Positions 12,473 through 51,446 of a DNA stretch of 64,000 nt are shown one piece after another. The notes under the pieces were generated by a model that was not told where the DNA came from, made no database searches, and was given only the letters and a program-made list of their open reading frames with translations. The translations under genes and the position numbers were made by a program. Within the stretch, counting starts at the first letter, position 1. Each line of letters starts with the position of its first letter. Source of the stretch: Candidatus Falkowbacteria bacterium GW2011_GWF2_43_32 (GTDB lineage: Bacteria; Patescibacteriota; Patescibacteriia; Patescibacteriales; UBA12465); contig LCGL01000002.1 of NCBI GenBank assembly GCA_000999715.1, positions 26,136 through 90,135 of the forward strand, written 5' to 3'.

Positions 12473-13036
12473 ATGAAAAAGAAAACTGGGCTGATTATTT
12501 TGGCCGTGGTTATCGTTATCGGCGGTTGGTTATGGTCGTCTTACAATAAACTGGTGACCACCAACGAATCGGTGGATAATCAATGGGCGCAGGTGGAAAC
12601 TCAATATCAACGGCGTTTTGATTTGATTCCCAATTTGGTCGCCTCGGTGCAAGGCACCATGACTCAAGAGCAGGAGGTTTTCGGCACTTTGGCCGAAGCC
12701 CGAACGCGTTATAGCGGCGCGCAATCCGTGAATGACAAGGTGGCGGCCGCGACCGGCGTGGAGAGCGCTTTGGGACGCTTGTTGGTGGTGATGGAAAATT
12801 ATCCGGAATTGAAATCGGTGGAAGCCACTCAAGCCCTGATGGTACAACTGGAAGGAACGGAAAACCGGATCAGCGTGGAGCGCAGCCGATTTAACGACAG
12901 TGTTAAAAGTTTCAACATTATGATTAAGCGCGTGCCGACCAATTTGGTAGCCACTTGGTTCGGTTTTACGGAAAAAAATTATTTTGCCGCCGTAGCGGCG
13001 GCGGCGGAAGTGCCGGGGGTGGAGTTTAACAATTAA
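12473..13036 (+). CDS. lemA: LemA family protein
   Basis: 187 aa with an N-terminal TM helix followed by YNKLV...W.QVE.QYQRRFDLIPNLV, the LemA signature. Confidence 0.85.
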   Translation: MKKKTGLIILAVVIVIGGWLWSSYNKLVTTNESVDNQWAQVETQYQRRFDLIPNLVASVQGTMTQEQEVFGTLAEARTRYSGAQSVNDKVAAATGVESALGRLLVVMENYPELKSVEATQALMVQLEGTENRISVERSRFNDSVKSFNIMIKRVPTNLVATWFGFTEKNYFAAVAAAAEVPGVEFNN

Positions 13037-13045
13037 TTATCTCCC

Positions 13046-13954
13046 ATGTTCCGTCGTTTATTTATTGTCTTTAGTTTGGTTTTATTTTTGGCGGTCGGCT
13101 TTTCCGCTCGGGCTTATGTTAGCCCCGGGAAGCCGACCGGTTTTGTTAACGACTATGCCAACATTTTGCCGGCGACCGAACAACAAGCCTTGGAGGACAA
13201 ATTAACCGCTTTCAGTCGAGAATCCGGCAACGAAATTTCCCTGGTCATTGTCTCGGATTTGGGAGGCGAGACGATTGAAAATTTTGCGGTCCGGCTATTT
13301 GAGGAATGGGGAATCGGCCGAGAGAAACAGGATAACGGCGTTTTATTGGTAGTGGCTTTAGCCGAAAGGCAGATGCGTTTGGAAGTCGGCTACGGCCTGG
13401 AAGGCGCTTTGCCGGATCTTTTGAGTTATCAAATCATCACCGCCACTTTGCGGCCGGCTTTTCAAAGCGAGGATTATTATGGCGGCCTGGACCGAGCGAT
13501 TGAGCAAATAATGACCGCGACGCGCGGCGAATATCCGATCGGCTTGGATAGCGACCGCCAAGCGGGGAATATCGGTTTTGAAAATTGGTTTTGGTTATTA
13601 TTTTTTGTTTTTTATTTATTGTCCGCTCTGCGTCGGCATTTGGCCAAGAGCCGCAGCTGGTGGCAGGGCGGCGCGTTCGGCGCGGTCATCGGTTTGCTAA
13701 TCGCTTTGATTTTTCTTCGCACCCTTCTGTTCTTGTTGATTTTGCCGGCGGTGTTTATTGTCCTCGGATTGATTTTTGATTTTTTAGTGTCCCGTGTCCT
13801 GCCTCAACCGAAACCGGGGAGCGGCAGAAATAACTTGTGGTGGTTTCTGGGCGGCGGTTCGGGCGGTTCGGGCGGTTTCGGCGGTTCGGGCGGGGGCTTC
13901 GGAGGTTCCGGCGGCGGCCGTTCCGGCGGCGGCGGCAGTAGCGGCGGGTGGTAG
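13046..13954 (+). CDS. TPM domain-containing protein (YgcG-like) with TM segments and Gly-rich tail
   Basis: 302 aa. A signal/TM segment is followed by a TPM-type core (VNDYANIL...NEISLVIVSDLGGETIENFAVRLFEEWGIG...DNGVLLVVA...RLEVGYGLEG). The protein has a GGSGG-rich C-terminus and forms the usual pairing with lemA. Confidence 0.8.
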   Translation: MFRRLFIVFSLVLFLAVGFSARAYVSPGKPTGFVNDYANILPATEQQALEDKLTAFSRESGNEISLVIVSDLGGETIENFAVRLFEEWGIGREKQDNGVLLVVALAERQMRLEVGYGLEGALPDLLSYQIITATLRPAFQSEDYYGGLDRAIEQIMTATRGEYPIGLDSDRQAGNIGFENWFWLLFFVFYLLSALRRHLAKSRSWWQGGAFGAVIGLLIALIFLRTLLFLLILPAVFIVLGLIFDFLVSRVLPQPKPGSGRNNLWWFLGGGSGGSGGFGGSGGGFGGSGGGRSGGGGSSGGW

Positions 13955-14544: not shown

Positions 14545-14713
14545 TTTTGTTCCTCCTGATTATAGTTTATTTAAGTTGTTAAAGATTAGAAATTGTTACA
14601 ATAGATTTCGTTTCATATTACCGCTTATTCTTATTTTTGTCAATTGTCCGAAAAGCTCCCGAAAATAAGAGTTTTTTCGATTTTTATGTTATAATAAAAG
14701 CGTTTATCAGTTG

Positions 14714-15472
14714 ATGATTAATAATATGTTCAAAAATATGTTTAAAAGTAAAAAATTGTCGTCGGAAAGTCAAACTTTTCAGCGGAAACATTTTTTAATC
14801 GGGGCGGTTATTCTGGTGGAAACTTTGGTGCTGTTATTTTTATTTTTGAAACTGACCATGATTAACATCGCGGTTCTGACTTCGCCCGTCTCGTCTTGGC
14901 GGCCGACGGAATTTTCTTTCGTGGAGCCGATGGTCGGCGGCGAAGCCGGGGCCAGCGAGATTTTATCTTTGCCCGACGATCAAATCAATAACATCGATAT
15001 CAGCTTTCAAACTTCGCCGGACGGCGCCAGTTTCGCTTATATCGTAAAAACCGACGCCGGCCAGGCAGTGGTTCTGAACGGTCAGAGCGGCCGGTTTTAC
15101 CCGGAAATCACTTTTATGACTTTCAGCCCCGACAGCCGGCGCTTCGCTTATGGCGCGAAAAGCCGGGACGGCGAACGGGTGGTTTTGGACGGCCAAGAAG
15201 GGAAATTGTATGATTGGATTTTCACGCCGCGATTTTTTACGCCCGACAGCGGCTATTTCGTTTATAAGACGCGGACGGATAAGGGCGATGTGCTGGTTTT
15301 CAATACCAGCGAAACTCAGCCCTACGACCAGATTTATGAACCTTTATTGAGCGCCGATCAAGTGTATAATCCTTTGATCAAATCGGATAAGATTCGGTTG
15401 ATTTATTACGGTCGTCGCGGTTCTACGCTTTGGCAAGGAGTTTTGGAATCGGGTGGCGCCGCCGTTAAATAA
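14714..15472 (+). CDS. membrane-anchored protein with repeated SPDx..FAY..(V/L)(V/L).(N/D)G beta-propeller-like units
   Basis: An N-terminal TM helix is followed by three similar units: SPDGASFAYIVKTDAGQAVVLNG, SPDSRRFAYGAKSRDGERVVLDG and TPDSGYFVYKTRTDKGDVLVF. The ATG is at 14714 (the ORF track uses the TTG at 14711). An extended -10 TGTTATAAT lies at 14687-14695. Confidence 0.55.
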   Translation: MINNMFKNMFKSKKLSSESQTFQRKHFLIGAVILVETLVLLFLFLKLTMINIAVLTSPVSSWRPTEFSFVEPMVGGEAGASEILSLPDDQINNIDISFQTSPDGASFAYIVKTDAGQAVVLNGQSGRFYPEITFMTFSPDSRRFAYGAKSRDGERVVLDGQEGKLYDWIFTPRFFTPDSGYFVYKTRTDKGDVLVFNTSETQPYDQIYEPLLSADQVYNPLIKSDKIRLIYYGRRGSTLWQGVLESGGAAVK

Positions 15473-15498
15473 AAAATATTATTCATTCAAATAAAGAT

Positions 15499-15954
15499 AT
15501 GAATTCTCACTTTGAAAACAACGATAAAAGTCGTTATGATTTAAAGCAAGAAAGGACGGAAAATCAATTTTATAAGAAAATAGAGCAGGAAATTTTAAAC
15601 AGCGATTACTGCTTGAATGACAAAGCGCGCGTTTTAATTAATCAATATGCCTTTGGAATGAATCAGAACGAGACGGAAGCTACTTTATCTTTTTTGGAGC
15701 ATTTTAACGACGAACAGGGGGCTTTGCCCGATGAATTGGGCGAAGAGTATGTTCGCTTGTTTTTTAGCGCCGATAATATTCAAAGACGAATGGAGACCGG
15801 ATTGGATTTCCATCAAGCCGTGGCCGCTTTGGCCGTGGCCGCCAAAGAGAAGCAGGTTATTCTGGACGAAAGATTAATCAACAAGGCGGTCAAGATTGCG
15901 GCTGATGCTTTGGAGGCCGTGGAGGCGGAGACGGAAGGGAAAGCGGCGGTATAA
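15499..15954 (+). CDS. hypothetical acidic protein
   Basis: 151-aa ORF packed tightly between neighbouring genes (26-nt and 23-nt gaps). No motifs recognised. Confidence 0.5.
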   Translation: MNSHFENNDKSRYDLKQERTENQFYKKIEQEILNSDYCLNDKARVLINQYAFGMNQNETEATLSFLEHFNDEQGALPDELGEEYVRLFFSADNIQRRMETGLDFHQAVAALAVAAKEKQVILDERLINKAVKIAADALEAVEAETEGKAAV

Positions 15955-15977
15955 ATAAAATTTAATATCATCAATAT

Positions 15978-18446
15978 ATGAACGGGAACGGTCAGTCGGG
16001 TTTCGGTCGCGGTTCGTTAGCGGGCAAGACAGTTTTAATCGTCAATACGGCGGGCGCCAACGACCCGTTGCATTCCAAGAAGTTTTTTATTAAAAAAATC
16101 AAAAGTTTTGGAGTTAAGGTTTTGGTGTTGAGCCAAGAAGCCAATTCTTTTCAGCCTTACGTCGACTATTGTTTGACGGCCAATACGACCGATTATTTAG
16201 AAGCTTTGACCGCTTTGGATAATTTCTTTAAAGACAAGCCCGAACTTAAGTTGGACGGCGCCATCACTTTTTTGGAAGATGACGTCTTGTTGACCGCCAA
16301 AATCGTCGATAAATACAAACTGGTCGGCACTCCCTATAAAGTCGCCAGTCGTACCCGCAATAAATATTTGTTGCGGGAATTTTGCGCGGCCAATAATCTG
16401 CCGGTCGTTAAATTTTTGGCCTTGAAGCATCATAGAGATTTGGAGGAGGTAATCAAAACTTTTCGTTTTCCGCTGGTAGTCAAGCCGGCCTACGGTGCCA
16501 GTAGCGCCTTTGTGATGAAAGTTAATAATGAAGAGGAACTGCGGGAAAGCTACAGCTACATCAAGCGAGAAATTTCTCCGAAAATAGAATCGGCTTTGGC
16601 TGACGGTCTGGAGGTTTTTGTGGAGGAATATATTGACGGCGATGAGGTGGATTTGGACATTTTGGTACAAAACGGCAAGATTAAATTTTGCGCCATTTCG
16701 GATAACGCCAAAACCAAGGAGCCGTTTTTCATTGAGACTGTCAGAACGACCCCTTCCAACTTGCCGCCCAAGAATCAGGCGGAATTGGTGGCCATGGCCG
16801 ACGAAACGCTGGAGAAACTCGGTATTTTGAACGGTTGCGTCCATTTTGAAGCCAAATCCACGTTGGCCGGTCCGATGCCGATAGAAATTAACCTGCGCCT
16901 GGGCGGCGACGAGGTTTATCCGAGCATCAAGGGCGCCTGGCGCGTGGATTTGGTGGAAAATCTGCTGAAAATCGCCTGCGGAATATATATCCCGAAATTT
17001 AATTTTCCCAACGGACCTTATGAATACTTGGCGGCGGAAACTTTCTCTTCCGCTTATTCGGGCATTATCGTCAATTTGGAAATTGACGCGGATTTGAAGC
17101 GCTGGCCTTTTGTCAAAGAATTCGCTTTTGAAAAAAAGATCGGCGATTCGGTGCTGTCCCCGCCCGACGGCTATGAGTATTTGGGCTGGATTTTGGTTTC
17201 GGGTTTGAACGCCTTGGACGCTTCCGATAATTTGCGTCAGGTGGAAAAAGTCATCAATTATGAAGTGGCCAAATTCCATCCCGCCTCTTTCATCGGTAAA
17301 ACCAGTCGTCGGTCGCCTTTTGCCGCTTCCATGATTAATGTCGATCTTTTGAAGGGGCGCAGTAAGATTGAAAAGATTCGGCGCATGACCATTTCCAACC
17401 AGCGCAATCTGCATATCGGCATTGCCGGTAATTTGTATGAAGAAAGCGGTGCCGACCAGGAAACGGTGGTAGAACAGGATTTGACGGTCATCGGCCGGGA
17501 TATCGCTAAAACTTTGCAGGCGCGAGGCTATAAAATCAGTTTTTTTGATTTTAACGATTTGCCCAAAGCTTTCAACGATTTGAAAAACAGCGATGTTGAT
17601 TTGGTTTTTAACGTTTGCGAACGGGTCAACAATTCCAGTTTGTTGGAGCCGCATGTCGCCGCCATCTTTGATATGTTGCAGATTCCCTATACCGGCTCCA
17701 ATCCCTTTACTTTGGGGTTGTGCATTGATAAGATTCGGGTCAAAAAATTATTGAGTTATCATAAGATTCCCACGCCGGAATGGGACTATGTCTATTCTTT
17801 GGATGATGACATCCGCGAGGATTTGCGTTATCCCTTGATAGTCAAGCCGGCCAACACCGACAATTCCATCGGTATCACCAATGATTCCGTGGTGCGCAAT
17901 AAAGCGGAGTTGGCTCGTCAGTTGGAAAAAGTGATCAAAGAAATCGGCCGGCCGGCTTTGATTGAAGAGTATATTGACGGCGATGAATATGACGTTCCGA
18001 TTATCGGCTCCGAAGAGGATGATTTGCGGATTTTGCCCTTGGCGCGCTCTATTTTTGACGCTCTGCCGTCGGATTTATGGCATATTTATCCTTTTGAAGC
18101 CAAATATACCGAGAGCGAGGCTTATAAAAAAATCGTGGTTCAGCGCCCGCCGAAAAATATCGGCAAGAAACTGGAAACTCTGTTGGGCGAAATCGCTTTG
18201 GATACTTACAATATTTTGGATTGTCATGATTACGGACGGGTGGAAATCAGAGTGGATAAACATAATAATCCTTATGTTTTGGAGTTGAATCCCAATCCGT
18301 CCATTGATGCGGAAGGAACGACGGTCGCCTCAGCAGAAGTGATCGGGATGGATTACGGAGATTTTTTGGAAGAGATTATCCGTTTGGCCATCAAACGTTA
18401 TAAAGACAATCCGCCTTATTATCATCTTCAGCCGAATATTCTTTAA
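15978..18446 (+). CDS. fused double ATP-grasp ligase (N-terminal L-amino-acid-ligase-like module + C-terminal D-Ala-D-Ala-ligase-like module)
   Basis: 822 aa with two complete ATP-grasp signatures. Module 1: FPLVVKPAYGASS...VFVEEYIDGDEVDLDILV...PIEINLRLGGD. Module 2: YPLIVKPANTDNSIGI...ALIEEYIDGDEYDVPIIG...YGRVEIRVDKHNNPYVLELNPNPSI. Confidence 0.75.
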   Translation: MNGNGQSGFGRGSLAGKTVLIVNTAGANDPLHSKKFFIKKIKSFGVKVLVLSQEANSFQPYVDYCLTANTTDYLEALTALDNFFKDKPELKLDGAITFLEDDVLLTAKIVDKYKLVGTPYKVASRTRNKYLLREFCAANNLPVVKFLALKHHRDLEEVIKTFRFPLVVKPAYGASSAFVMKVNNEEELRESYSYIKREISPKIESALADGLEVFVEEYIDGDEVDLDILVQNGKIKFCAISDNAKTKEPFFIETVRTTPSNLPPKNQAELVAMADETLEKLGILNGCVHFEAKSTLAGPMPIEINLRLGGDEVYPSIKGAWRVDLVENLLKIACGIYIPKFNFPNGPYEYLAAETFSSAYSGIIVNLEIDADLKRWPFVKEFAFEKKIGDSVLSPPDGYEYLGWILVSGLNALDASDNLRQVEKVINYEVAKFHPASFIGKTSRRSPFAASMINVDLLKGRSKIEKIRRMTISNQRNLHIGIAGNLYEESGADQETVVEQDLTVIGRDIAKTLQARGYKISFFDFNDLPKAFNDLKNSDVDLVFNVCERVNNSSLLEPHVAAIFDMLQIPYTGSNPFTLGLCIDKIRVKKLLSYHKIPTPEWDYVYSLDDDIREDLRYPLIVKPANTDNSIGITNDSVVRNKAELARQLEKVIKEIGRPALIEEYIDGDEYDVPIIGSEEDDLRILPLARSIFDALPSDLWHIYPFEAKYTESEAYKKIVVQRPPKNIGKKLETLLGEIALDTYNILDCHDYGRVEIRVDKHNNPYVLELNPNPSIDAEGTTVASAEVIGMDYGDFLEEIIRLAIKRYKDNPPYYHLQPNIL

Positions 18447-18451
18447 CGCTT

Positions 18452-19360
18452 ATGAACGAGATGAAAGTCATCAGCGATCCGGCGGCGGCGCGCGACATTT
18501 GGGAAAAGTTATCGCCTCAAGAAACGATTTACGATTCTTGGGATTTTCGCGCTTGTTTTTATCGCCACGATCCTCAGCCCTTGCATTTCTATGTTTATTA
18601 CGAACAGGATGAAGCGGTGGCTTTGTTGCCCCTGCAGTACAATCGGGAATTGAATTGCCTGGAATTTTTGGCCGAGAATTTCATGGAAAATAATCGGCCC
18701 TTTTTCAAGGCCGGTTATGAATATTTATTGCCTCGGCTGTTCAATCAAGACTTTGAACAGGCGGTCAAAATTTATGATTTGGACGGGATAGACGACTTTA
18801 CGCGATCCTTGCCCTTGGAAGATTACGTTTATTTTATTTCTTTATCCGGCTTGACCGGCTTTGAAGATTATTTGACGAGAGATTTTTCCGACCGTAAGAA
18901 GCGGATTAAATTTCGTCGCCTCGCCGCGCGCTTGGAGGAGGAGCACGCGGTGAAAATTATCATTAATGATTTGGCCGATTTGGATTTGATTATGGATTTG
19001 AATGCCGCCAGTTTCGGGACGGAGTCGTATTTGAAAAAGGAGCGGGAGCGACAACCTTTCCATGATTTGTTGAAACTGCCTTGGGATTGGCAACTGGTGA
19101 CGATTAGCGTGGACGGAGTAAAAGTGGCCGGCTCTTTATCCGTTAATTATCGCGGCACTTATTTTTATATGATTGCCGGGGCGGATACCGGTGCGGTGCC
19201 CGATGTTTTTAAATATTTGACTAAAGTTAATTTGGAGTTGGCGATTAAAATCGGCGCGAAAATTTTTAATTCTTCTCTGGGAGATTGCAATTGGAAAAGT
19301 CATTGGCATATGGATAAATTGCCGCAGTATAAGTTTATCAAACTGAAGGAAAAGGTTTAG
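18452..19360 (+). CDS. GNAT-fold acyltransferase of the CelD/BcsL / FemAB-like (Acetyltransf_6) type
   Basis: 302 aa starting 5 nt after the ATP-grasp gene. The overall pattern (W..L......YDSWDF...; C-terminal GAD.G...FKYL...LAI..G...F..S) resembles Acetyltransf_6 proteins. The assignment is by eye only. Confidence 0.45.
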   Translation: MNEMKVISDPAAARDIWEKLSPQETIYDSWDFRACFYRHDPQPLHFYVYYEQDEAVALLPLQYNRELNCLEFLAENFMENNRPFFKAGYEYLLPRLFNQDFEQAVKIYDLDGIDDFTRSLPLEDYVYFISLSGLTGFEDYLTRDFSDRKKRIKFRRLAARLEEEHAVKIIINDLADLDLIMDLNAASFGTESYLKKERERQPFHDLLKLPWDWQLVTISVDGVKVAGSLSVNYRGTYFYMIAGADTGAVPDVFKYLTKVNLELAIKIGAKIFNSSLGDCNWKSHWHMDKLPQYKFIKLKEKV

Positions 19361-19548: not shown

Positions 19549-19830
19549 ATGTCAAAAATGACAAAATCACAGATGATCGCCTCCTTGGCGGAAGCGACCG
19601 GTTTAAGCAAGAAAGACACGGTGGCTTTTATGGATAAACTGGCCGACTTCGTCTACAAGGAAGTGAAGAAGTCCGGTGAATGCATTGTTCCGGGCTTCGG
19701 CAAGTTGGTGAAAGCGCATCGCAAAGCCAGAGAAGGCCGTAATCCGGCGACCGGCGAAACCATCAAGATAGCGGCTAAAACCGTGGTCAAATTCCGCTTA
19801 GCCAAAGCGGTTAAAGATGCCATTCTTTAG
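19549..19830 (+). CDS. hup: DNA-binding protein HU
   Basis: 93 aa with MTKSQMIASLAE...GFGKL...REGRNPATGETIKI, the HU/IHF signature. Confidence 0.9.
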   Translation: MSKMTKSQMIASLAEATGLSKKDTVAFMDKLADFVYKEVKKSGECIVPGFGKLVKAHRKAREGRNPATGETIKIAAKTVVKFRLAKAVKDAIL

Positions 19831-20400: not shown

Positions 20401-20729
20401 TTATATTATTTTAAACCTTTTGCCCGGAGAAAGTCAATAAGGGGGCTTAGGTCAGTTTGTTTGGATTAGCTTGTTTAAGACATCTTCGGGTATTAGAGAA
20501 ATGATCAAGCGATAACAAAGGGATAGTCAGGCAAGCATAAAGCGATAATCAGGCAAGAGTAAAACGGCAATAAAGAGCGAATAAAAAGCGTAATAAATTT
20601 AGGATAGACTGTTAATAATTAATTTGCTTTTCAATATTTCTTGTGATAAAATAATCTACGAGAATTAAAAATGATTTATTGGCGGCGGGGCTTATTTCCC
20701 GTTATTTTTTGTTAAAAACATTTCTTAAA

Positions 20730-21311
20730 ATGTCCATCAATTTGGTGCAAAAATTTAAAGACAAACAAGCTTTGACTAAGCTGAAAAACCGCGATAAAGA
20801 GGCGTTTATTGAGGTTTATGACAATAATGTCAAGGAAATAAACCGTTTCGTTTATTTTAAAATCGGCAAGCGGGAGGAGGCCAATGACCTGACTTCCGTG
20901 ATTTTTTTAAAGGCTTGGAATCACATTCAAAATAAAACCTTGGAAGATGCCAATACTTTACGGTCTTTGCTTTATAAAATCGCTCGGAATTCCATCATTG
21001 ATTACTATCGGGAAACCGGCAATAAGTTGACCGTTTCCATTGATGACGAAGATCATCGGGTTGATGTCGTTGACGAAAAAACGAATTCCCTGGAAATGAT
21101 GGAGCAAAATGATGATATAAAATTGATTAAAAGTCAACTGCCATTTTTAAAAGAAGAGTATCGGGAAATTATTATCATGAGGTTTATCAATGATTTATCT
21201 TTGGAGGAAATCGCGGAAATTAGCGGAAAAACCAAGGGAAATATCAGGGTATTGATTCATCGCGCTCTGAATGCCTTGCGGGAATTGGTGGAAAAAACGC
21301 AAAAATCTTGA
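20730..21311 (+). CDS. RNA polymerase sigma factor, sigma-70 family (ECF-like, regions 2 and 4)
   Basis: Region 2-like FVYFKIGKREEANDLTSVIFLKAW and region 4 HTH YREIIIMRFINDLSLEEIAEISGKTKGNIRVLIHRALNALR. The ATG at 20730 is preferred over the ORF-track start at 20679. An extended -10 TGATAAAAT lies at 20644-20652. Confidence 0.8.
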   Translation: MSINLVQKFKDKQALTKLKNRDKEAFIEVYDNNVKEINRFVYFKIGKREEANDLTSVIFLKAWNHIQNKTLEDANTLRSLLYKIARNSIIDYYRETGNKLTVSIDDEDHRVDVVDEKTNSLEMMEQNDDIKLIKSQLPFLKEEYREIIIMRFINDLSLEEIAEISGKTKGNIRVLIHRALNALRELVEKTQKS

Positions 21312-21374
21312 TTTTACTGTAACTTTTGTGGAGTTTATCCGTATATTATAGTGTGAGATACTCATCATAAAAAA

Positions 21375-22244
21375 ATGACCAATAAAGATATTCTCGCCAA
21401 ATTGAATAATTTGAAAAACGTCAATCCCGATGCCGCTTGGTTAACAAGCAATCGGGAATTGTTGTTGACTCAGATTTCCAATTCCGGCGCCGCGGACTTA
21501 TCGTCCGGCAGAATTATCTTAATTAACTTTCAGAGTGTTTTACAAGCTATTTCTCGCCCGGCCTTTGCTTTGGGCGTTTTTGTTTTTGTTTTGGTTTCCG
21601 TCAGTCTGTTCAGTCACGAATTGTTTAATAAAACCAAGCCGAATAATTCCTTATATATCGCTCGGGTGATTTCGGAAAGATTGAAGTTGAATACTACTTT
21701 CAATTCCGTGGAACGCGACAAGTTGGAAGTTCGTTTTGCTTCCAATCATGCTCAGGAAATTTCCGCGATTTTAGCCGATCCGGAATTCAATACCGAGGCC
21801 AATAAAGATCAGGTAGCCAAGTTAAGCAATGATTTCAATAAAGAAGTCGTTACGGTTAAGAGTCGGATAAATCGTATCAGCCGCGTTAACGCGGTGACGC
21901 CGGTAACCGTTCCGGCCGATGAAGTGATTATCGCCGATAGTGCCAAAGAAGAAGCCGGCATCCAATTGGCGGAGGGTCGGTCTGCCGAGGAAACGACAAT
22001 AACGACACCGATTATCGTTGAAGAAGCGGTGACGACCGTACCGGAAACGGCGGCGACGTCGGCGGCGACGTCGGCGGCGGAAGTGGCGGAAGTGGTGGAA
22101 GAAGTTGCCACCAGTACCGCCGTGACGGTTGAAGCGCCGACCGAGGCCGACAAAATATTAGATGAAGCGCAACAGCTGTTTGATCAAAAAGATTACGGCA
22201 AGGCTTTGGATAAGCTCAAAGAAGTTGACGAAATTATCAAATAA
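21375..22244 (+). CDS. single-pass membrane protein downstream of sigma factor (possible anti-sigma / DUF5667-like)
   Basis: 289 aa with one central TM helix (PAFALGVFVFVLVSVSLF) and an Ala/Thr/Glu-rich extracytoplasmic part. The call rests on position after the sigma gene. Confidence 0.4.
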   Translation: MTNKDILAKLNNLKNVNPDAAWLTSNRELLLTQISNSGAADLSSGRIILINFQSVLQAISRPAFALGVFVFVLVSVSLFSHELFNKTKPNNSLYIARVISERLKLNTTFNSVERDKLEVRFASNHAQEISAILADPEFNTEANKDQVAKLSNDFNKEVVTVKSRINRISRVNAVTPVTVPADEVIIADSAKEEAGIQLAEGRSAEETTITTPIIVEEAVTTVPETAATSAATSAAEVAEVVEEVATSTAVTVEAPTEADKILDEAQQLFDQKDYGKALDKLKEVDEIIK

Positions 22245-22738: not shown

Positions 22739-25700
22739 ATGAAAAAATTACGCAAATTCTTAGTCAGCAGCGTAATGGTATTAACGGTTGTCGCCATGAG
22801 TGGCGTAGTCGTTCCTTCTGTCAATGCGGCCGCTTCGGCGGGCGACTTGATTAAGATGGAAGGCAACTCTTCCGTTTATTACCTGGGCGCTGATGCTAAG
22901 AGATACGTTTTCCCTAACGAAGCTACCTACATGTCCTGGTACTCCGATTTCAGCGGTGTGGTCACTATTCCCGCGGCTGAATTGCAGAGCTATGCCTTAG
23001 GAGGCAATGTTACCATGAGACCGGGTACCAAGTTAGTGAAAATCACTACGGATCCTTCCGTATATGCCGTTGAAACCAATGGCACATTAAGAAAGATTCA
23101 GAGCGAAGCCCAGGCGGCTGCCTTATACGGCACCAACTGGAACACGAAGATTGTTGACGTTCCGGATGCTTTCTTCACGAACTACAATGTCGGTTCGGTT
23201 TTACCGAGCGGTCAATATTCTATTGGCAGTTTAATAAAAAATGCCGGCGCGTCCGAAATTTTTTATTATGACGGCACCAGTTATCGGAAGATTACCAACG
23301 AAGCGGCTTTCAATGCCAATCGGTTCAACATGGCTAACGTCTTAACGGCGTCAACCACAGTTTCCGGTACCGGCACGGAAATTTCCGCAGTTGAAACCGG
23401 ATTAGTCAATGTTTCTCAGGGTGCTTCCACTCCGGATGCGGTTATTACCGGTTCCGGTTTGATGGTTTCCTTGAGCTCCATGACTCCGGCGGGCACCGGT
23501 ATTCCGGCGGCCTCTCCGATGGATTTCTTGAAAGTTAACTTAACGGCGGCCAACGATGGCGCGGTCAATGTTTCCGCGATCACCTTAACCGCTTATGATT
23601 TAGGTACTTCTACCTTTATTGATGAAGTTACTTTCTATGATAACGGCGTTAAAGTCGGAACTTCCAAGAACTTTACTTCCGATCGCGTCGCTTCCTTTAG
23701 TTTCGCGACTCCGATTGTCGTTAATGCGGGTACGACCAAAACTTTAACCGTCAAAGCGACGATTGAAGCCAGTCAGACCGGTAATTTCGCCATCGGTATT
23801 GCCAAGGCGGCCGATGTTACAGCCACCGCTTCTGCGGTTACCGGTTCTTTCCCGGTGGTCAGCAACACCATGTCCATCGTTTCCGGTGCGACTATCGGTA
23901 CGGTTGGCTTGACCAACGCGGTTACTACCGATACGACCAACAAATTCGGCGAAGACAATGTCTTATTGGCGGAATTTGATTTGACGGCCAATAACGAGCC
24001 GGTTCTTATCCAGTCCATCAAATTACGGAATGGCGGAACCGACACGACCGGCATCGTCGATAACTTGAAGTTATTCGTTGATGGCACGGAAGTGGCTTCC
24101 GGCACCTATGCCGACAAATATGTGACCTTCTCTCTTAACAATTATAAAATTGCCAAGAGCGATACGGTTCAGCTTGAAGTCAGAGGTGATTTGGGTGTAA
24201 CCAACAACAACGATACTTTTGTTTTGTATATCAAAGACGTTAACGATTTCGGTTTTATCGGTCAGGATTATGGTTTCGGCGTACAGCTTACTACGGCCGG
24301 TTTAGCCAATCTTGACACCACGACCGAAGGCATCACCGTGACTTTGACCACCGGTCAATTCACGATTGATATGGATAAGAGCGCCACTCCGGCCAAGGAT
24401 GTCAAAGCCGGCGATAATGACGTTGTCTTAGCGACTTTGGTGATGAAATCCAATGGCGAAGACGCTTTATTGGAGCAGATTGTGGATAGCGGTGGCAATG
24501 ATTTTGAAATCAACGGCACCGGCTTAGAGGCTGACGAAATTGAGAACGTGGAAATGCGCGATGTCGCCACCGGCGCCGTCTATGACATTACCGCGACTCG
24601 CGTTGGCAGTACGCAATGGACTTTGTCTATGACCGATGAGATTACTTTGCTCAAAGGCGTAGCCAAGACCTTCCAGATTCGTGCCGATATGAGCGACAGC
24701 GTAGCTGTTGGTGGAAATGGCGGTCCGATTGACGATGGCGATACTTTATATGTTGTGTTAGATGGCGCGGCGATGACTATCACCGGCGAAACCTCTAACG
24801 CTTCCATTACTGATATTACCCCGTCTTCCGTTACTTCCGCGACTGTGACTGTTAAGGACGCTTCCTTGACTTGGACTCCGACCGCTTTATCAACCCAGAC
24901 GGTTGTCGGCGGTGCCCAGGATGTCGTGGTTTATCAGGCTTCCTTGAAAGCCGGTACGGCCGATGGTATTAAATTGTCTTCAGTGACGATTTCTACCGAC
25001 GGTGCTGATACGGCCTTCACCGATGACGATATTACCAAGTTAGATTTATATTTGAACGGGAAACTGCTCAAATCCGTTTCTAACAGCATTGTGGAAACCA
25101 CTGGCGGAGCTGACGGTTATATTACTTTCAATTCCTTTAGCAGTGAAGCCGACGCGACTATCGCGGCCGGTGCCACGGTTAATTTAATGGTTAAGGCGTC
25201 TTTTGCCTCCACCGTTACTGCGGCCGGTACCTTTGATTTGGAATTAGAATCCGCTGACGATGCTACTTCTCGCGCGGTTTCCTCCAATGACTCGGTTACC
25301 GAGACTGGTACTATTTCCGGCGTTTCCGGTAATATTACCACTACCGCTAAAGGTACTTTGAAGGTTGAATTATTGGTAACTGATGTTAAAGCCGACGAAG
25401 ATACTCATATCTTAGCCGGTTCCGCGGTGGCGGCCGATCGTTACTTGGCTGAATTGAAATTCACCACGGAAAACGAACCGATCAAGGTTACCAGATTGAG
25501 ATTGGAAAATAGCGGTACTTCCGCTTCTGACGATGTGGCTTCGGTGAGATTAGTTACCGGTAGCGGCACTATCGTAGCGGAAGAAATTCCGGAAGCGGAT
25601 GGCGACGTCTTGTTTGATCCGTTTGACTATGTCTTAGCGGCCGATCAGACGACCAGCTTGTTTATCGCTCCGGTGGTCAGAGGATTGAATGTCTTAAACG

Positions 25701-26413
25701 ACCCGACTTCCACGGCTGACTACAACGAAACCATGATCTACAACATTGATGATATTGCGACCGGAGTTGTCGCCACAGGCGTAAACTCCAGCGCCAGCAT
25801 CACTTTAGTTGTCGATCCGGACGCCGATACAGTAGCGACCGGTCAATGGGCCGCGGCTTCCATTACTTCCAACACCGCGACTATTGTCGGTTCTGCTTTG
25901 ACTACCATTACCAACGCTATGAGTGACGCGACTTTGACCGGCGGTACCGCCAAAATCTTAGGCAAATACACGTTTGTCTTTGACAACGGCAGTAACAGAA
26001 ACGCTTCCAATGAAGAATTGAAAGCTTATCTGGATGCTCTCAAGGTAACTGTCAACAAGAGCACGGCGGTGGTTATTACCAATGTTAATGCTCAGATTGA
26101 TGGCACCGCTACCAAGGTAGCCGGCGACATCACCACTTTGGGCAATGGTAATACTTCCGGTTCGGTTGACTGGTTGACGACCGAATTGCAAGGTTTGGCG
26201 GATGGTGGTAAATTAGACGGTACAGTGACTTTGGTCATCACCGGCGATGTTACTACCACTGACGCGACCAGCGAATACGTTCAGACTTCATTGGCTGATG
26301 TCTATGGCGCTGGCGATGTCGATTACATCGGTAACGGTGCGACTGATGGCACGATTTTGACTGCCACCTATCTGCCGGTTGCCGAAGTTATCGGCGGTAC
26401 CTTGTCCGAGTAG
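22739..26413 (+). CDS. large secreted cell-surface protein (S-layer-like)
   Basis: 1224 aa with a Sec signal (MKKLRKFLVSSVMVLTVVAMSGVVVPSVNAAAS). The composition is Cys-free and rich in Thr/Val/Ala/Gly/Asp, with many beta-rich repeats (...VTLT.., ...LKVNLTA..). The N-terminus has tandem ~80-aa modules. Confidence 0.6.
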   Translation: MKKLRKFLVSSVMVLTVVAMSGVVVPSVNAAASAGDLIKMEGNSSVYYLGADAKRYVFPNEATYMSWYSDFSGVVTIPAAELQSYALGGNVTMRPGTKLVKITTDPSVYAVETNGTLRKIQSEAQAAALYGTNWNTKIVDVPDAFFTNYNVGSVLPSGQYSIGSLIKNAGASEIFYYDGTSYRKITNEAAFNANRFNMANVLTASTTVSGTGTEISAVETGLVNVSQGASTPDAVITGSGLMVSLSSMTPAGTGIPAASPMDFLKVNLTAANDGAVNVSAITLTAYDLGTSTFIDEVTFYDNGVKVGTSKNFTSDRVASFSFATPIVVNAGTTKTLTVKATIEASQTGNFAIGIAKAADVTATASAVTGSFPVVSNTMSIVSGATIGTVGLTNAVTTDTTNKFGEDNVLLAEFDLTANNEPVLIQSIKLRNGGTDTTGIVDNLKLFVDGTEVASGTYADKYVTFSLNNYKIAKSDTVQLEVRGDLGVTNNNDTFVLYIKDVNDFGFIGQDYGFGVQLTTAGLANLDTTTEGITVTLTTGQFTIDMDKSATPAKDVKAGDNDVVLATLVMKSNGEDALLEQIVDSGGNDFEINGTGLEADEIENVEMRDVATGAVYDITATRVGSTQWTLSMTDEITLLKGVAKTFQIRADMSDSVAVGGNGGPIDDGDTLYVVLDGAAMTITGETSNASITDITPSSVTSATVTVKDASLTWTPTALSTQTVVGGAQDVVVYQASLKAGTADGIKLSSVTISTDGADTAFTDDDITKLDLYLNGKLLKSVSNSIVETTGGADGYITFNSFSSEADATIAAGATVNLMVKASFASTVTAAGTFDLELESADDATSRAVSSNDSVTETGTISGVSGNITTTAKGTLKVELLVTDVKADEDTHILAGSAVAADRYLAELKFTTENEPIKVTRLRLENSGTSASDDVASVRLVTGSGTIVAEEIPEADGDVLFDPFDYVLAADQTTSLFIAPVVRGLNVLNDPTSTADYNETMIYNIDDIATGVVATGVNSSASITLVVDPDADTVATGQWAAASITSNTATIVGSALTTITNAMSDATLTGGTAKILGKYTFVFDNGSNRNASNEELKAYLDALKVTVNKSTAVVITNVNAQIDGTATKVAGDITTLGNGNTSGSVDWLTTELQGLADGGKLDGTVTLVITGDVTTTDATSEYVQTSLADVYGAGDVDYIGNGATDGTILTATYLPVAEVIGGTLSE

Positions 26414-28107: not shown

Positions 28108-31100
28108 ATGTTTAAAATCAACGCTCGTTACTTCAAAAAGCCAATGGTTTCGTTATTGGTTTTTTTATTTATTTTGAGCCCGCTTACTTCGGTTTTTGCC
28201 GAGAATGCTGTTATTTTAGTTGATCAGAATTTAGATATAACCGCTGTCGAAGTTTCCGTTTCGACCGTTAATGAAAAAAATGATGTTATAGCGATTGATG
28301 ATTCTGTAATTAACGAGGAGATAAAAGAATCGGTCGTGGAATTAACAATGGAAGCTGATGATTCGGCGCAGTCTGAATTTTTAACAAGTGAATCGCCTGT
28401 AGATACTAATGTTGTGATTAATCCCAGTACGGCTAAGCAATTATTGCCTAGCTCCGATCAAGTGAGCGGCGCGCTTATTTATGAATATTTAGTTTCTGTG
28501 CCGCCGGGTCGCAATGGACTGCAGCCGGATATTAAATTGACTTATAATAACCAAACCTCAGAAGAGGGCACGGAATTCGGCTTCGGTTGGGACATCAATA
28601 TTCCCTATATCCAAAGAGTGAATAAAAATGGTGTTGAAAAACTATATACTCAAAATTATTTCAATTCTTCTTTGGACGGTGAACTAGTATCCGCTGACAC
28701 AAATACCTGGATGGCTAAGACGGAAAATGGAGATTTTAGAACTTATATTTTTTCTAATAATCAATGGATAATGAAGGATAAAAACGGCACGCAGTATAAA
28801 TTCGGTTATACAGCGATTGCCAGACAAGATGATTCAAGCGATACTTCAAAAGTCTATAAATGGCTTTTAGAGGAAGTCCGGGATACGAACGATAATTATA
28901 TCAAATACGAATATTATAAAAATGCCGGCCAAATATACCCTTATCGGATTACTTATACTGGCAACGGCACGACAGATGGTATATTTCAAATTGAATTTTT
29001 AAAAGAAAGCCGTGATGACGCAATTACCAATAATCGTCCAGGATTCAGTGTAACGACATTTTATCGTATTTACGAGATTGACATAAAAGTCAACGGTAGC
29101 TTAACTCATAGATATGGTCTAGATTATAGCGATAATAATGGTTCTCGCTCTTTGCTGTTTTCAATTACTGAAACTGGCATTGATGATCTCGGGAATTCCG
29201 TTATTTTACCCGATACTACTTTTGAATATCAGGAAGAAACCCCGGGCTGGACTTTTGCCTGGACAACCCCTGTTTATCCGGTAAGTCCTTTTGTGATAGA
29301 TTACGCTAATGATAGAATAGTGGATGTAAATGGTGATGGTTTTCTTGATATGTTATCTACTAGAGACGACACGACCAGAACTTATATAAACAACGGTGAC
29401 AGTTGGGTTTTTAATAATGATTGGGAGGTCCCTAATTTTCGTCCCGATCAGGGGAGAATTAAATTGAGTAGCGGTAATAGTTTTGTAGTTGATATTAATG
29501 GTGATGCTTTAGCTGACATTATTTATGGAGGAGAGTCGATATATATTAATCAGGGATTGGGTTGGGTTTATGACGATTCTTGGGAAATACCGGCACTAAT
29601 GAATGTTATGGATTATAATTTGGATAAGTTAGCCGATGTTAATGGCGACGGATTAATTGATATTGTTTCTACTCGACATGGATATACTAACGATTACACT
29701 ACCTTTTATATTAATAATGGTTCAGGTTGGGATTATGATCAACAACTGGAAACTCCTTTTGTAGAGGGCGTAGGGCATTTTTCGGTAGGAGGGGTTAATG
29801 CTCAACTAGTTGATATTAATGGTGATAGCTTAGTGGATATAGTTTATAATTCTGACATTTTTATCAATCAGGGTCATAGTTGGATTTATGATGATTCTTG
29901 GGAAATACCGGCGCTAATGAATGGCGTATATTATAATCTTGATAGATTTATTGATGTTAATGGTGACGGATTGATTGATATTGTTTCTACTCGACATGGA
30001 TATACTAACGATTATACTAGCTTTTATATTAATAACGGTTCAGGCTGGGATTATGATGATTCTTGGCAAACACCCAGTCAAATAGCTCTAAGCAATAGCT
30101 ATTTTAATGGGTTAGTTGATGTTAATGGCGATGGAATAACTGATTTAATTTATAGTTCTTCCGTTTATGTTAATAACGGAGATAAGGTTGATTTATTAAC
30201 CACTATTAACAACAACAAAGGCGGCTTTACCGACATAATCTATAAAACTACGCCTCAATATCGCTCCGGCTCCACACAGTTGAATCCGAAACTGCCGTTT
30301 GTTTTAGATACTGTTTATCAATTAGTAACTAATGACGGTGCAAACAATATTGTTACTAAAACCTATAGTTACGAAGGTGGCCAATATTATTTTAATACGT
30401 ATATTGATCGTAAGTTTGCCGGATTCAATAAAGTGATAACGACTGATGCGGTCGGCAATACTACTAAATTATTTTTTCATCAAGGAGATGCCTCAGATTC
30501 CTCTCAGGGCGAATATAACGATGATGCTTTTAAGATCGGCAAGATTTATCGCACGGAAGTGGCCGATAGCACCGGTAATATTTACAGTAAAAGTATCAAT
30601 AAATGGGATGACTATGATTTAGGAAATGGTAATAAATTCGTTAAGTTGGCGCAGACCTTGGAGATGACTTATGACGGAAATTCCACCCACAAGGATAAAG
30701 CGGAAACCTATAGTTATGATAACGCCAATGGTAATTTAACTCAAAAAATAGAACTAGGCGAAGTTATTGGCAATAATGACGGTGTTTATACCGATATCGG
30801 CACGGATGATTTTATGACCACGATTTCCTATGTTTCTAATACCGGTGCCAATATTTTAGGCCTGCCTTCGCAACAAACAGTCGTCGATCATAATTTTAAT
30901 AAAGTTAAAGAAACAAAATATTATTATGACGCCCAAGCTTTGGGTGGTGTCATAAAAGGCAATCTGACCAAACAAGAAGACTGGAAATCGGGAACCGCCT
31001 ATGTTAATGCCCGGAAGACCTATGATGGCGTTTATGGCCTGGTAACGATGGCTACTGATCCGAGGGGCAAGACTACGCGCTATATTTATGATTCATATCA

Positions 31101-40634: not shown

Positions 40635-43600
40635 ATGAACAAAAAATTACTGATGAGATTGTTGGTTTTTGCCTGCCTGGCTTTAACGCCCTTATTTTGT
40701 CGGGCGATGGCTCCCGGTACGCTCTTATACCGCACCACCGACGACGGCAAGGCCTATGGTTATAGTGGCGATCCCTTGATTGAAGTCGAGGGCGGAATAA
40801 TCAAAAGTATCAATCCCGGTCATGTCGGTATTTATATCGGCCGGGAAAACGGCGAGGATTATGTCGTGGAAGCTTCGGCCAACGGTTTGGTCAAAACGCC
40901 GGCCAAATATTTTGTGAATTTGGCCGCTAACGAGAAATTTCTGGGTGCGAAAATTCCGCTGGCCGCCGATGCTTTGGAACGCGCCAAAGTTGTGCTTTTG
41001 GCCAAAAGTTTGGCCGGCAAAAGCTTGGCTTACGATTTTGATTTTAAATATCAGAAAGGACCGGAGAGCGGACAATGGACTTGCGTGGGTTTGACGGAAA
41101 AAATTTATGAAAGCGCCGCCATTTCCAATCCCAACAATTTGGCCGCCTTGGAGTATGATCCGGCTTATTATGCCGTGGACATCACGCCGGACGGTTTTGA
41201 CAATTACAGCGTTATCAACGAAAACGGCGATTGCTTTTCCCGCGATTATGAATTTTCCAAAATTGCTCGACACCGGGATTTTCTTTTGCCCGCGCCGGAG
41301 TTGATCGGCTTTGACGCCGGACGGGAATATAAGGGCGAGCGCTATATTTTTCTGCCTTATACTCAATTTCTACAACCGACTTTAGGGGACGTGCCGGTGG
41401 ATATTGTCATCGCTTCTTCGTTTGACGCCGAGGAAATTCGCGGGCGAGTCAATGTGCCGGCGCTGATATTGCGGTGGAGTTTGCTTAACAATCCGGTATC
41501 CTCCGTGAAACAGTTGGCCGGACGTCTGGGCGACTTGGCGGTTAAAACCGCAGACAAAACCAAAGAGGTGGCGAAAATTATCGGTGAAAAAATATTTGGC
41601 GCCAAAAACGGCACGGAAATAGTTTTAAACGATCAGGAATTGAAGAAATCGACCGGTGTCGGTAAAACGACAGTTAAAGCCGCCACGGCAAAAACGACGA
41701 TCAATAAGACCCCTTTGATTACGGTAAATAAAGCGACGTCTAAATTAACGACGCCTGTTTCGTCGACGTCTAAAACCGCTTCGGCGATTTTGAACGGCTC
41801 CAAAGTTGCCGCGGTTCCCGTTTCTTCGTCCGCCGGCGCCGCCTCGCTTGCCCCTGTTCCCACTTCCGCCGCTTCGACCGCGGCCGCTCTGGCCGCTTAT
41901 TATTCGCCGCCGGCCGTGCAACGGGCAGTCGACCAACCGGCCTCGGAAACCGAAAATTCTGCCGTTGTACAAAATGTTAATTCCACTATCAATGCGGAGG
42001 CAAATTCTTCTGCCGCTTCCGCTTCCGCCTCGATTCCGACTTCTTCTTCTTCTTCTTCTTCTTCCGCTTCGACGGCGACAACGGCTGATTTTCCGACATT
42101 GGCGATAATCAATAAAATTTATGCCACCGGCGATAATGACTGGGTGGAATTATTCAATCCGACCGATCATGATTTTGATTTGGCCGTTGCCGGTTATCGT
42201 CTAGAAAAAGCTAAAACCGCCGAAGATCCGAGTTTAATGATACGTCTCGGCAATGCTGCTGATGGCGCTTATCCCGGCGGCACTGTAGTTTCGGCGCACG
42301 GCACTTATTTGATTGTTCGCGACGACGCCAACGATTACTATCGCGCCCGCGCTGACGCTATTGCCACGCGCGACGAATTCGCTTGGACCGCCTCTGGCTA
42401 TACTTTATATTTGGGTACCGATGCCATCAGTTCCAGCGCCGATCTTGATTTGACCGATGCCGTCGGTTTCGGTTCGGACGCTACCTATTTTCAGGGCAGT
42501 GGACCGGCACCGGCCGTCGGCGATAATTATATTTTGAATCGGCTGGCTAATAACGGAAATAATCAAACCGATTTTATTTTAATCGTTTCCGACGATCCGG
42601 CCGCGCTTATTCCGGTTATTGAGGGAAATTCGGCCACGTCTACGGAAGAAACAATTCCGCCGCTTGAAGACACGGCCACGTCCACCGAGGAAATAATTCC
42701 GCCGCTTGAAGATTCGGCCACGTCCACCGAAGAAATAATCCCGCCGGCTGAAGACACGGCCACGTCCACGGAAGAAATTGTTGAAGAAGAAATTTCCGCA
42801 GAAGAAAACGGGGAAGAAAATTTCCTTAAATTGGCTTTGATTAATAAAATTTATGCCACCGGCGATAATGACTGGGTGGAACTATTTAATCCCACCGATC
42901 ATGATTTTGATTTGGCTACTGCCGGTTATCGTTTGGAAAAAGCTAAAACCGCCGAAGATCCGAGTTTGATGATGCGTATCGGCAACACCGAGGACGGTTC
43001 TTATCCGCAGGGGACGGTTATCGCGGCCGGGGAATCTTATTTGATTGTTCGCGATGACGCCAACGAGTATTATAAAAGCCGGGCCGACGCTATTGCCACG
43101 CGCGACGAATTTGTTTGGACCGGTTCCGGTTATACTTTATATTTGGGTACCGACGCCATCAGTTCCAGCACGGATTCGGATATTATTGAAGCGGTCGGCT
43201 TCGGTCCGGACGCCACTTATTTTCAAGGCAGCGGACCGGCGCCGGCTATCAATGACAATTATATTTTACAGCGGACGGCAAAAAGCGGCGACAATATTTG
43301 GGATTTTGCTTTAATTCCTTCCGACGATCCCGGGGTCGTCGCCGCCGCGACCGAAATCGCGACGACCACGGTGGCCACCGCCGGTTTATTTGTTCCGCCG
43401 GTACCTTTGGAATCGTTCGGTTTAACCGATTTATGGCATTTTGACGAATGCTACGGAGAGGGAAGTTGGACAGTCGGGAAGTGGGATTGCGCTCGGGAGG
43501 TCGGACATACTAACGATGAATTGACGGCCTCCTTGACTCCGGCCGTTGATTTGAGCAGTTTTTCCGTAGCTTTTTATTATAAAAAGCAGGCGTCGGATTC

Positions 43601-45071: not shown

Positions 45072-45097
45072 AATTTTCGTTTATTATTATTTGACAT

Positions 45098-50433: not shown

Positions 50434-50434
50434 G

Positions 50435-51394: not shown

Positions 51395-51446
51395 GTTTAA
51401 GTTTCATTTTGAAAAGATTTTTAATTTAATTGTAATCAGTAACCAT

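Follow-up and report, generated by a model that had tools for sequence, protein, structure and literature searches.

What might a bacterium build with two amide ligases of different classes fused in one polypeptide chain and with a predicted aminoacyl transferase encoded directly behind them? The question is raised by two genes, here called G3 and g4, in a stretch of 64,000 nucleotides (64 kb; hereafter the window) of contig LCGL01000002.1 from Candidatus Falkowbacteria bacterium GW2011_GWF2_43_32, a member of the Patescibacteria. An earlier note on this DNA, drawn from the letters and their open reading frames (ORFs), had proposed that G3 and g4, together with the two genes ahead of them (g1 and g2), form an operon for making a peptide or amide without the ribosome. 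Comparison with relatives showed that the conserved functional core is G3 with g4 directly downstream of it. We think it quite likely that two acyl-phosphate ligations and one aminoacyl transfer build a short peptide and propose, more tentatively, that G3 and g4 serve the assembly of a peptidoglycan side chain or stem peptide. The coordinates of the features in the window are collected in Table 1.

Two ligase modules of different classes in one chain

ATP-grasp enzymes join carboxylates to amines via acyl-phosphates. Pfam searches located ATP-grasp_4 at residues 163-311 of G3 (E 4.7e-31), LAL_C2 at residues 358-430 (34.7 bits, cut-off 29.4) and Dala_Dala_lig_C at residues 609-801 (E 3.3e-37). 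Both sequence and fold bore out the reading of the earlier note that the protein carries two complete ATP-grasp modules, an N-terminal one resembling L-amino-acid ligases (LALs) and a C-terminal one resembling Ddl, the D-alanine-D-alanine ligase, and catalytic residues were intact in both. When the N-module was searched against PDB sequences, the best match was 3vot (BL00235, the LAL of Bacillus licheniformis; E 4.9e-23), followed by BacD and RizA, and Foldseek gave target-normalised TM-scores of 0.82-0.87 against 3vot. Across 39 sequences K169, E216, E291, E303, N305 and R307 were invariant, and E217 was at least 90 % conserved. The N-module therefore has the LAL family's marks of fold and sequence, both the ATP-grasp fold with LAL_C2 and the catalytic and ATP/Mg residues. 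Judged by these conserved positions it looks active, which argues against the degenerate N-terminal module that the earlier note had allowed for. It shares its fold, LAL_C2 and the catalytic Lys/Glu/Glu-x-Asn/Arg set with BL00235, BacD/YwfE and RizA but is only ~20-22 % identical to them in Foldseek alignments and, unlike them, is covalently joined to a second ligase and stands outside any antibiotic cluster.

The AlphaFold2 (AF2) model of G3 had a mean predicted local distance difference test score (pLDDT) of 79.6 and a predicted TM-score (pTM) of 0.56, so that the geometry between the modules is unreliable. pLDDT was low at residues 435-461 of the linker, yet the sequence there is conserved (SIGKT..R....KIEKIRRM). 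ATP-grasp ligases, Fem-type transferases and chains with two ATP-grasp modules are known already: the large subunit of carbamoyl-phosphate synthetase is a precedent for sequential ATP-dependent steps catalysed by two such modules in one chain, and the bifunctional GshF is one with a Ddl-like second module. In contrast to these enzymes, the modules of G3 belong to different classes and the chemistry is another, the homology being limited to the ATP-grasp fold.

Size and conservation of the G3 family

When 5.8 billion proteins were searched with G3, over 120 homologues spanning its full length were retrieved (~805-845 aa, 60-99 % identity); those that are named come from metagenome-assembled genomes of Patescibacteria. 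When one genome for each GTDB species was scanned for motifs, at least 354 loci, mostly labelled Patescibacteria, encoded a G3 relative, and labels among the best 80 of them include Falkowbacteria, Peregrinibacteria, Roizmanbacteria, Komeilibacteria, Jacksonbacteria, Paceibacterota and Parcubacteria. The closest named relatives are 76-83 % identical to the G3 of the window, several of them labelled Falkowbacteria; the g4 proteins of these same closest loci are only 37-71 % identical. Over 84 aligned full-length homologues, median identity to the window copy was 74 % for the C-module and 55 % for the N-module. An exhaustive HMMER search of 1.84 billion cluster representatives placed the N-C fusion in about 17 clusters (clustering at 50 % identity), with identities down to 29 %, besides many stand-alone N-like and C-like proteins. 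Because more than 120 G3 and 82 g4 homologues exist, both are real genes and not chance ORFs.

The earlier note had called the fusion no standard annotated enzyme. This stands insofar as the enzyme is uncharacterised, as are the size of its family and its repertoire of partners, but the family is large and already annotated in generic terms: its members are labelled 'ATP-grasp domain-containing protein' or, by JGI pipelines, 'D-alanine-D-alanine ligase'. Literature searches on the fusion, on PF13480 together with ATP-grasp and on D-amino-acid supply for candidate phyla radiation walls gave nothing on the G3 family, an earlier computational mention still being possible.

Two observations concern the G3 sequences as such. 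Many loci with a G3 of Patescibacteria type lie in records titled 'uncultured Gammaproteobacteria bacterium', almost certainly a placeholder or wrong label. An antisense ORF of 485 aa lies wholly within G3, and such ORFs recur in relatives (clusters c2, c3, c7 and c9); they merely mirror the sense frame, which is strongly conserved, and are no genes.

The C-module is a Ddl-family ligase with an altered substrate side

The C-module matched the Ddl structure 3r23 in a sequence search of the PDB (E 2.7e-24), and Foldseek gave target-normalised TM-scores of 0.83-0.85 against Ddl entries. Its scores on the curated NCBIfam models stayed below the cut-offs, both for PRK01372 (192.8 bits, cut-off 243) and for TIGR01205 (161.6 bits, cut-off 245.65), on which E. 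coli DdlB as a control reached 439.5 and 373.9 bits, respectively. In E. coli DdlB numbering, the ATP, Mg and phosphoryl-transfer residues K97, K144, E180, K215, R255, D257 (as Glu), E270 and N272 are retained. In contrast, the D-Ala-binding signature (E15, H63, S150, Y216, S281, L282) is not reproduced: H63 is a gap or E, S150 is Asn throughout, the Y216 position holds Y, W or F, and a loop that varies among lineages replaces S281/L282; the E15 equivalent is mostly acidic, the alignment there being uncertain. The nearest 78 representative clusters are all of a non-canonical E63/W216 type and include fusions to acetyl-CoA-type GNATs and to lysine-2,3-aminomutase as well as tandem C-C proteins. 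Thus the C-module has the fold, the Dala_Dala_lig_C domain and all the ATP, Mg and phosphoryl-transfer residues of a canonical Ddl but falls into a separate clade. Since it scores below the Ddl cut-offs and its substrate-side residues differ, it is, as far as sequence can tell, a Ddl-family ligase that does not pass as a D-Ala-D-Ala ligase, and the label 'D-alanine-D-alanine ligase' on G3 is likely a mis-annotation by pipelines.

These data bear on an alternative reading, by which the C-module would be nothing more than the organism's housekeeping ligase for D-Ala-D-Ala (or D-Ala-D-X), with an accessory L-amino-acid ligase joined to it, and g4 would be either a neighbour without functional relation or a bridge enzyme of Fem type. 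We regard this as very unlikely. The low model scores, the missing H63, the S150 to N change and the replaced S281/L282 loop all speak against it, as does the company of the C-module, whose 78 nearest clusters are all of the non-canonical type and include GNAT and aminomutase fusions, contexts foreign to a cell-wall Ddl; nor is the N-module degenerate. Moreover, three relatives (loci L080, L082 and L083) carry, besides G3, a separate Ddl-like gene beside murG. That gene cuts both ways. On the Ddl model the stand-alone protein in the division and cell wall (dcw) position at L082 and L083 obtains only 73-79 bits, far less than the C-module, and it has the same kind of non-canonical signature (D63, G150, W216, G281), which may be the Patescibacteria norm, so that the argument from residues is weakened. 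The JGI name, the usually acidic E15-equivalent position and the lack of another ddl within the window also favour a housekeeping role.

Several features of the wider C-module family were recorded on the way. C-module-like fusions are exemplified by P0308, P0275, P0297 and P0272 (lysine-2,3-aminomutase, Acetyltransf_3 GNATs, tandem pairs). Four distant fused relatives (P0209, P0214, P0215 and P0227; 29-44 % identity) have apparently lost K144, R255, E270 and N272 of the C-module, and these may be pseudo-enzyme modules or an artefact of the alignment. A correlation of pocket residues with partner type was considered and set aside, the pattern tracking lineage and hence being uninformative.

g4 is a predicted aminoacyl-tRNA-dependent transferase

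The g4 protein matched Acetyltransf_6 (PF13480, E 3e-8) but not the FemABX model PF02388; some homologues also matched PF04339, and a sequence search of the PDB gave no match. Its AF2 model, built with 29 homologues, was of high confidence (pLDDT 94.4, pTM 0.90) and showed a single chain of two GNAT domains separated by a cleft, as in Fem and MprF proteins. The best Foldseek matches were the peptide synthases Sba18/Sbb17, the synthase domain of MprF, Weissella FemX and A-PGS/L-PGS (E 1e-10 to 1e-8), with query-normalised TM-scores of 0.58-0.69 against aminoacyl-tRNA-dependent tandem GNATs. The acetyl-CoA pyrophosphate-binding motif [RQ]xxGx[GA] was absent in 28 of 29 family members. A C-terminal motif, LG(D)C(N/G)WKxxWH, contains the invariant Lys K282, whose location resembles, by position only, that of the catalytic Lys of FemX (K305) and DhpH (PMC12945691). 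From the model, g4 is probably a transferase of the Fem/MprF/Sbb17 type that depends on aminoacyl-tRNA. The earlier note had offered CelD/BcsL or FemAB as likenesses: the latter part holds in that the fold is the Fem/MprF tandem GNAT, but the context of CelD/BcsL is missing, the neighbours of g4 being G3, HU, a sigma/anti-sigma pair and LemA/TPM, with no cellulose synthase gene among them. The closest structural matches, Sba18/Sbb17/Orf11, PacB, DhpH, VlmA and MprF (PMC12945691), share only 12-16 % identity with g4, and the natural-product GNATs among them sit in an actinomycete biosynthetic cluster, whereas g4 sits among Patescibacteria housekeeping genes.

Partners of G3 in relatives

Neighbourhoods were compared at the best 80 of the 354 species loci. 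g4 was found within 5 kb on the same strand at 37 loci and directly adjoined G3 at 35 of the 80, mostly with gaps of 2-12 nucleotides (nt). Thus the fusion and the GNAT neighbour that the earlier note had pointed out are both kept in relatives. At loci that lack g4, no hidden divergent GNAT was detected near G3 by hmmsearch (E up to 1) or by hhalign over 26 neighbouring ORFs, the only signal against the g4 profile being marginal (L072, 8520-9416; probability 7.9 %).

A second recurring partner, seen where g4 is absent, is a MurL-like protein of ~458 aa, encoded within 5 kb of G3 at 13 loci and directly adjoining it at 12; at L062 there is a 4-nt overlap between its ORF and the start of G3. The protein carries an SFGKDS and a CxxCxxC motif, and 11 of 12 members matched the NCBIfam model MurL (best E 6.2e-10); Pfam searches gave no match, nor did a PDB sequence search. 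The partners of G3 at such loci include a third ATP-grasp protein (7 loci). Further partners are a LysA-like, pyridoxal phosphate-dependent decarboxylase (7-8 loci; 165 bits on the lysA model, cut-off 298), an enolase-superfamily protein closest to L-Ala-D/L-Glu epimerase (AEE; 4 loci; 213 bits, cut-off 500), a DegT-like protein, a methyltransferase, a nucleotidyltransferase and the families c103, c106 and c214, which had no Pfam match. At L062 (4553-12938) five genes for the MurL-like protein, G3, the third ATP-grasp protein, a match-less 620-aa protein and the LysA-like decarboxylase form an operon whose junctions overlap or measure 6-7 nt.

In one clade the ftsW-murG genes have G3 appended to them. 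The order at L083 (861-8409) is FtsW-like, MurG, stand-alone Ddl-like, MurL-like and G3, the FtsW-like protein being 35 % identical to the FtsW of the window. At L080 murG and a Ddl-like gene lie directly ahead of the MurL-like gene and G3, and at L082 they are found upstream, c103 and a SET-domain gene intervening. Similar ligases and transferases also occur unfused in other Patescibacteria: at L090 (8001-11096) two PF13480 genes come after a stand-alone LAL-like gene, with gaps of 2 and 4 nt, L086 (6681-10612) has three tandem LAL-like genes, and at L088 (6746-9254) two tandem ATP-grasp genes come directly after IleRS.

Other genes near G3 were noted as well. Downstream of G3 at L056 and L060 are a 321-aa, EpmA-like truncated paralogue of class II aminoacyl-tRNA synthetases and a 450-aa radical-SAM protein; as these genes are convergent to G3 and occur at two loci only, we treated them as coincidence. 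At L003, L041 and L068 an ATPgrasp_ST + 7TM_transglut pair and a class A penicillin-binding protein lie upstream.

Probable assembly of a short peptide, perhaps for the cell wall

In the scheme that we favour, the functional unit would be the gene pair. G3 would carry out two ATP-dependent amide ligations via acyl-phosphates, one in the LAL-like N-module and one in the Ddl-like C-module, g4 would add a further amino acid from aminoacyl-tRNA, and their joint product would be a short peptide made independently of the ribosome. The acceptor or product would most likely be part of the peptidoglycan peptide, as a side chain, a cross-bridge or a non-canonical stem position, with a UDP-MurNAc-peptide or a lipid-II-type precursor as the carrier. 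FemX, one of the matches of g4, acts on UDP-MurNAc-pentapeptide. Here we infer what each step does chemically, that the donor is aminoacyl-tRNA and that the target is peptidoglycan; this target is favoured because recurring partners of G3 come from families with characterised members acting on murein peptides and because G3 is appended to ftsW-murG in one clade. Among the peptide, the cross-bridge and the surface-polymer modification that the earlier note had left side by side, the context in relatives (MurL-like, AEE-like and LysA-like genes, ftsW-murG-ddl-like order) thus points to the cell wall.

The two enzyme classes are those by which side chains of peptidoglycan are known to be made: Fem GNATs add Gly and L-residues taken from aminoacyl-tRNA, and ATP-grasp ligases add D-Asp and D-Glu (PMC2655667, PMC2922099). 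Fem transferases and the ATP-grasp D-aspartate ligase Aslfm (PMC2655667) offer the nearest parallel, but the likeness shown is one of enzyme class, g4 matching PF13480 and not PF02388. A second parallel is the alternative D-Glu pathway of Xanthomonas, in which MurD2 ligates an L-residue that MurL then epimerises at the C-terminal position in an ATP-dependent reaction (PMC8788868). The gene logic is the same wherever G3 accompanies a MurL-family gene. In contrast to MurD2, G3 is an ATP-grasp enzyme and not a Mur ligase, the MurL-like protein is distant (31 bits, equivalog cut-off 700), and the window itself has no MurL-family gene beside the ligase.

Several points weigh against a wall peptide. 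All the peptidoglycan links come from relatives: among the 28 scanned ORFs of the window there is no mur ligase, ddl, alr or murI gene, and the 64 kb likewise lack a MurL-like, SET, AEE-like, LysA-like decarboxylase or murG gene; of the wall genes sought there, only that for FtsW turned up, and the window holds none of the partner families described above for loci without g4. The MurL, AEE and LysA matches lie so far below the curated cut-offs that they denote family membership and no orthology. At 26 of the 80 loci G3 has no recognisable partner within 5 kb, and, with only about 354 species, the system is accessory and not core cell-wall machinery. LAL-type enzymes normally use free amino acids. 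The tandem-GNAT fold also occurs in acyl-CoA-dependent enzymes (VipF, glucosamine N-acetyltransferase), which g4 matches more weakly (TM-scores 0.40-0.59), and the SET-domain partners fit a protein or peptide lysine better than a nucleotide-sugar precursor.

The SET-domain genes, present within 5 kb at 20 of the 80 loci, raise the possibility that the acceptor is a protein or a ribosomal peptide, tagged after translation as by RimK, tubulin-tyrosine ligase (TTL) or the L/F-transferase: G3 would extend a carboxylate of the target by two residues, g4 would aminoacylate an amine and the SET partners would methylate lysine. Three unrelated contexts have SET genes lying inside G3 clusters (L043, L082 and L084, the last combining MurL-like, G3, SET and GNAT genes), and in most of the loci closest to the window (L007-L039), several of them Falkowbacteria-labelled, SET genes come after g4, often in a tandem pair; none is present in the window. 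A conserved macromolecular substrate would suit the very high conservation of G3, and Fem-like GNATs do include protein N-terminal transferases (PMC2922099). Against this, neither module of G3 is nearer to the RimK, TTL and LysX clades than to LAL and Ddl, and no conserved small gene for a substrate or carrier travels with G3, g2 being confined to one clade. The HU gene just downstream in the clade of the window might be read in favour of tagging, but its linkage is limited to a block with overall synteny and is thus uninformative. We therefore think a tagging role quite unlikely.

A small peptide metabolite that stays free of the wall (for instance a compatible solute, a tripeptide of thiol type, a signal or an antimetabolite) is a better candidate, though still a somewhat unlikely one. 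By this route a dipeptide would come from the N-module, in the manner of BacD, RizA and BL00235; the C-module would add a third residue and g4 one more from aminoacyl-tRNA, with the Ddl-like module of GshF as an analogue of the second step and Orf11/Sbb17, PacB and DhpH as analogues of the last. Among solved structures, the N-module is closest to LALs that form dipeptides in antibiotic pathways, and g4 best matches Sba18/Sbb17 of a streptothricin-type pathway (PMC12945691). Domains like the N-module also occur in giant multidomain proteins of 1,100-5,900 aa, and the fusions of C-module-like domains to lysine-2,3-aminomutase or acetyl-CoA-type GNATs would be at home in such a pathway. The G3 family is patchily distributed, and its lineage-variable partners (decarboxylase, methyltransferase, DegT-like, nucleotidyltransferase) resemble those of biosynthetic clusters. 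On the other side, a median C-module identity of 74 % across several Patescibacteria lineages is unusual for secondary metabolism, the metabolism of Patescibacteria is minimal, and neither transporter nor resistance genes show a consistent linkage; the linkage to ftsW-murG and the families of the partners, whose characterised members act on murein peptides, also favour the wall.

Should the wall peptide be the product, G3 and its interchangeable partners might constitute a Patescibacteria-specific route to the D-amino-acid part of that peptide that does without free-amino-acid racemases. An ATP-grasp module would ligate L-residues, these would be epimerised or extended in place, and the Ddl-like second module would act afterwards; the MurL-like ATP-dependent epimerase, the AEE-like epimerase, the Fem-like transferase and the LysA-like decarboxylase would be the exchangeable helpers. 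Such a route would be the ATP-grasp counterpart of the MurD2/MurL pathway, and we hold it to be a doubtful, unlikely extension of the peptidoglycan reading.

Gene arrangement in the window

The four closely packed genes of the earlier note were reproduced from the ORF list: g1, g2, G3 and g4 lie on the same strand, separated by 26, 23 and 5 nt. No Shine-Dalgarno sequence was found ahead of any of the four. The single extended -10 promoter that the note had placed upstream of g1 is present as a motif, TGTTATAAT, without an acceptable -35, and was missing from the output of a two-hexamer promoter scan for this region. Because the AT-rich stretch around it holds 22 promoter-like sites where 9.4 are expected, a single promoter for the four genes is unproven.

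The descriptions of g1 and g2 proved correct. From its translation, g1 has a hydrophobic segment at about residues 28-58 and repeats of the type (F/T)(S/T)PD...F(A/V)Y...V(L/F).., and g2 has an isoelectric point of 4.67; Pfam searches with either protein, and an NCBIfam search with g2, gave no match. By tblastn and clustering over 85 loci, homologues of g1 were found at 4-5 loci, none of them adjoining G3, and homologues of g2 at about 11, all within the syntenic clade of the window. In the relatives that bear them, AlkD-like and SIMPL genes usually separate g1 and g2 from G3 (for g2, a SIMPL gene), and these two adjoin G3 in the window because its RlmH, AlkD, SIMPL and SET genes are absent. 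We therefore rejected g1 and g2 as functional partners: the four-gene "operon" is a local arrangement and no conserved functional unit, and the idea that the anchored repeat protein is a target or scaffold found no support in this analysis. The HU gene after g4, the LemA-TPM pair upstream and the sigma-70-family/anti-sigma-like pair downstream of the gene block were likewise rejected as partners, the LemA-TPM and sigma/anti-sigma pairs being syntenic with G3 throughout the clade, as part of whole-block synteny.

Across the window as a whole, almost every gene lies on the + strand, and the cumulative GC skew shows a monotonic rise. Four ORFs are very large (1,215-1,968 aa) and probably encode surface proteins.

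Table 1. Features of the G3 locus and of the surrounding window
Feature	Position	Strand	Basis or remark
LemA-TPM pair	12473-13954		upstream of the gene block
TGTTATAAT, extended -10-like motif upstream of g1	14687-14695	+	sequence match
g1, membrane-anchored protein with three ~33-aa repeats	14711/14714-15472	+	neighbour, without conserved partnership
g2, 151-aa acidic protein	15499-15954	+	clade-restricted neighbour, without conserved partnership
G3, 822-aa fused double ATP-grasp amide ligase, core component	15978-18446	+	Pfam/NCBIfam matches, homologues, AF2 model
G3 N-module, residues 1-440, LAL-like ATP-grasp + LAL_C2	15978-17297	+	PDB sequence search, Foldseek
Antisense ORF, 485 aa	16197-17654	-	within G3
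G3 conserved inter-module linker, residues 441-477	17298-17408	+	low pLDDT, conserved sequence
G3 C-module, residues 478-822, Ddl-like, non-canonical E63/W216-type clade	17409-18446	+	PDB sequence search, Foldseek
g4, 302-aa tandem GNAT, predicted aminoacyl-tRNA-dependent transferase, core component	18452-19360	+	PF13480, AF2, Foldseek
HU gene	19549-19830		after g4
Sigma-70-family/anti-sigma-like pair	20679-22244		downstream of the gene block
Very large ORF	22739-26413		signal-peptide-like N-terminus, Thr/Ala/Val-rich repeats
Very large ORF	28108-34014		
Very large ORF	40635-44621		
RNase P RNA	44691-45073		
tRNA-Leu(CAA)	50434-50518	-	
ParA/ParB	50630-52325		
Very large ORF	52329-55976		
FtsW	59807-60913		

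Implications for Patescibacteria

Patescibacteria are tiny and almost all uncultured and make up a large share of bacterial diversity, and to our knowledge their wall chemistry is essentially unknown. If the racemase-free route were true, it would be an undescribed peptidoglycan chemotype in this radiation, and calls of 'Ddl present' in Patescibacteria reconstructions would partly rest on G3. If the product were instead a free peptide, it would be among the few biosynthetic products predicted for Patescibacteria. Easily recognised, strongly conserved and accompanied by partners from murein-peptide families, G3 may offer an in vitro handle on how minimal cells build or modify their wall peptides.

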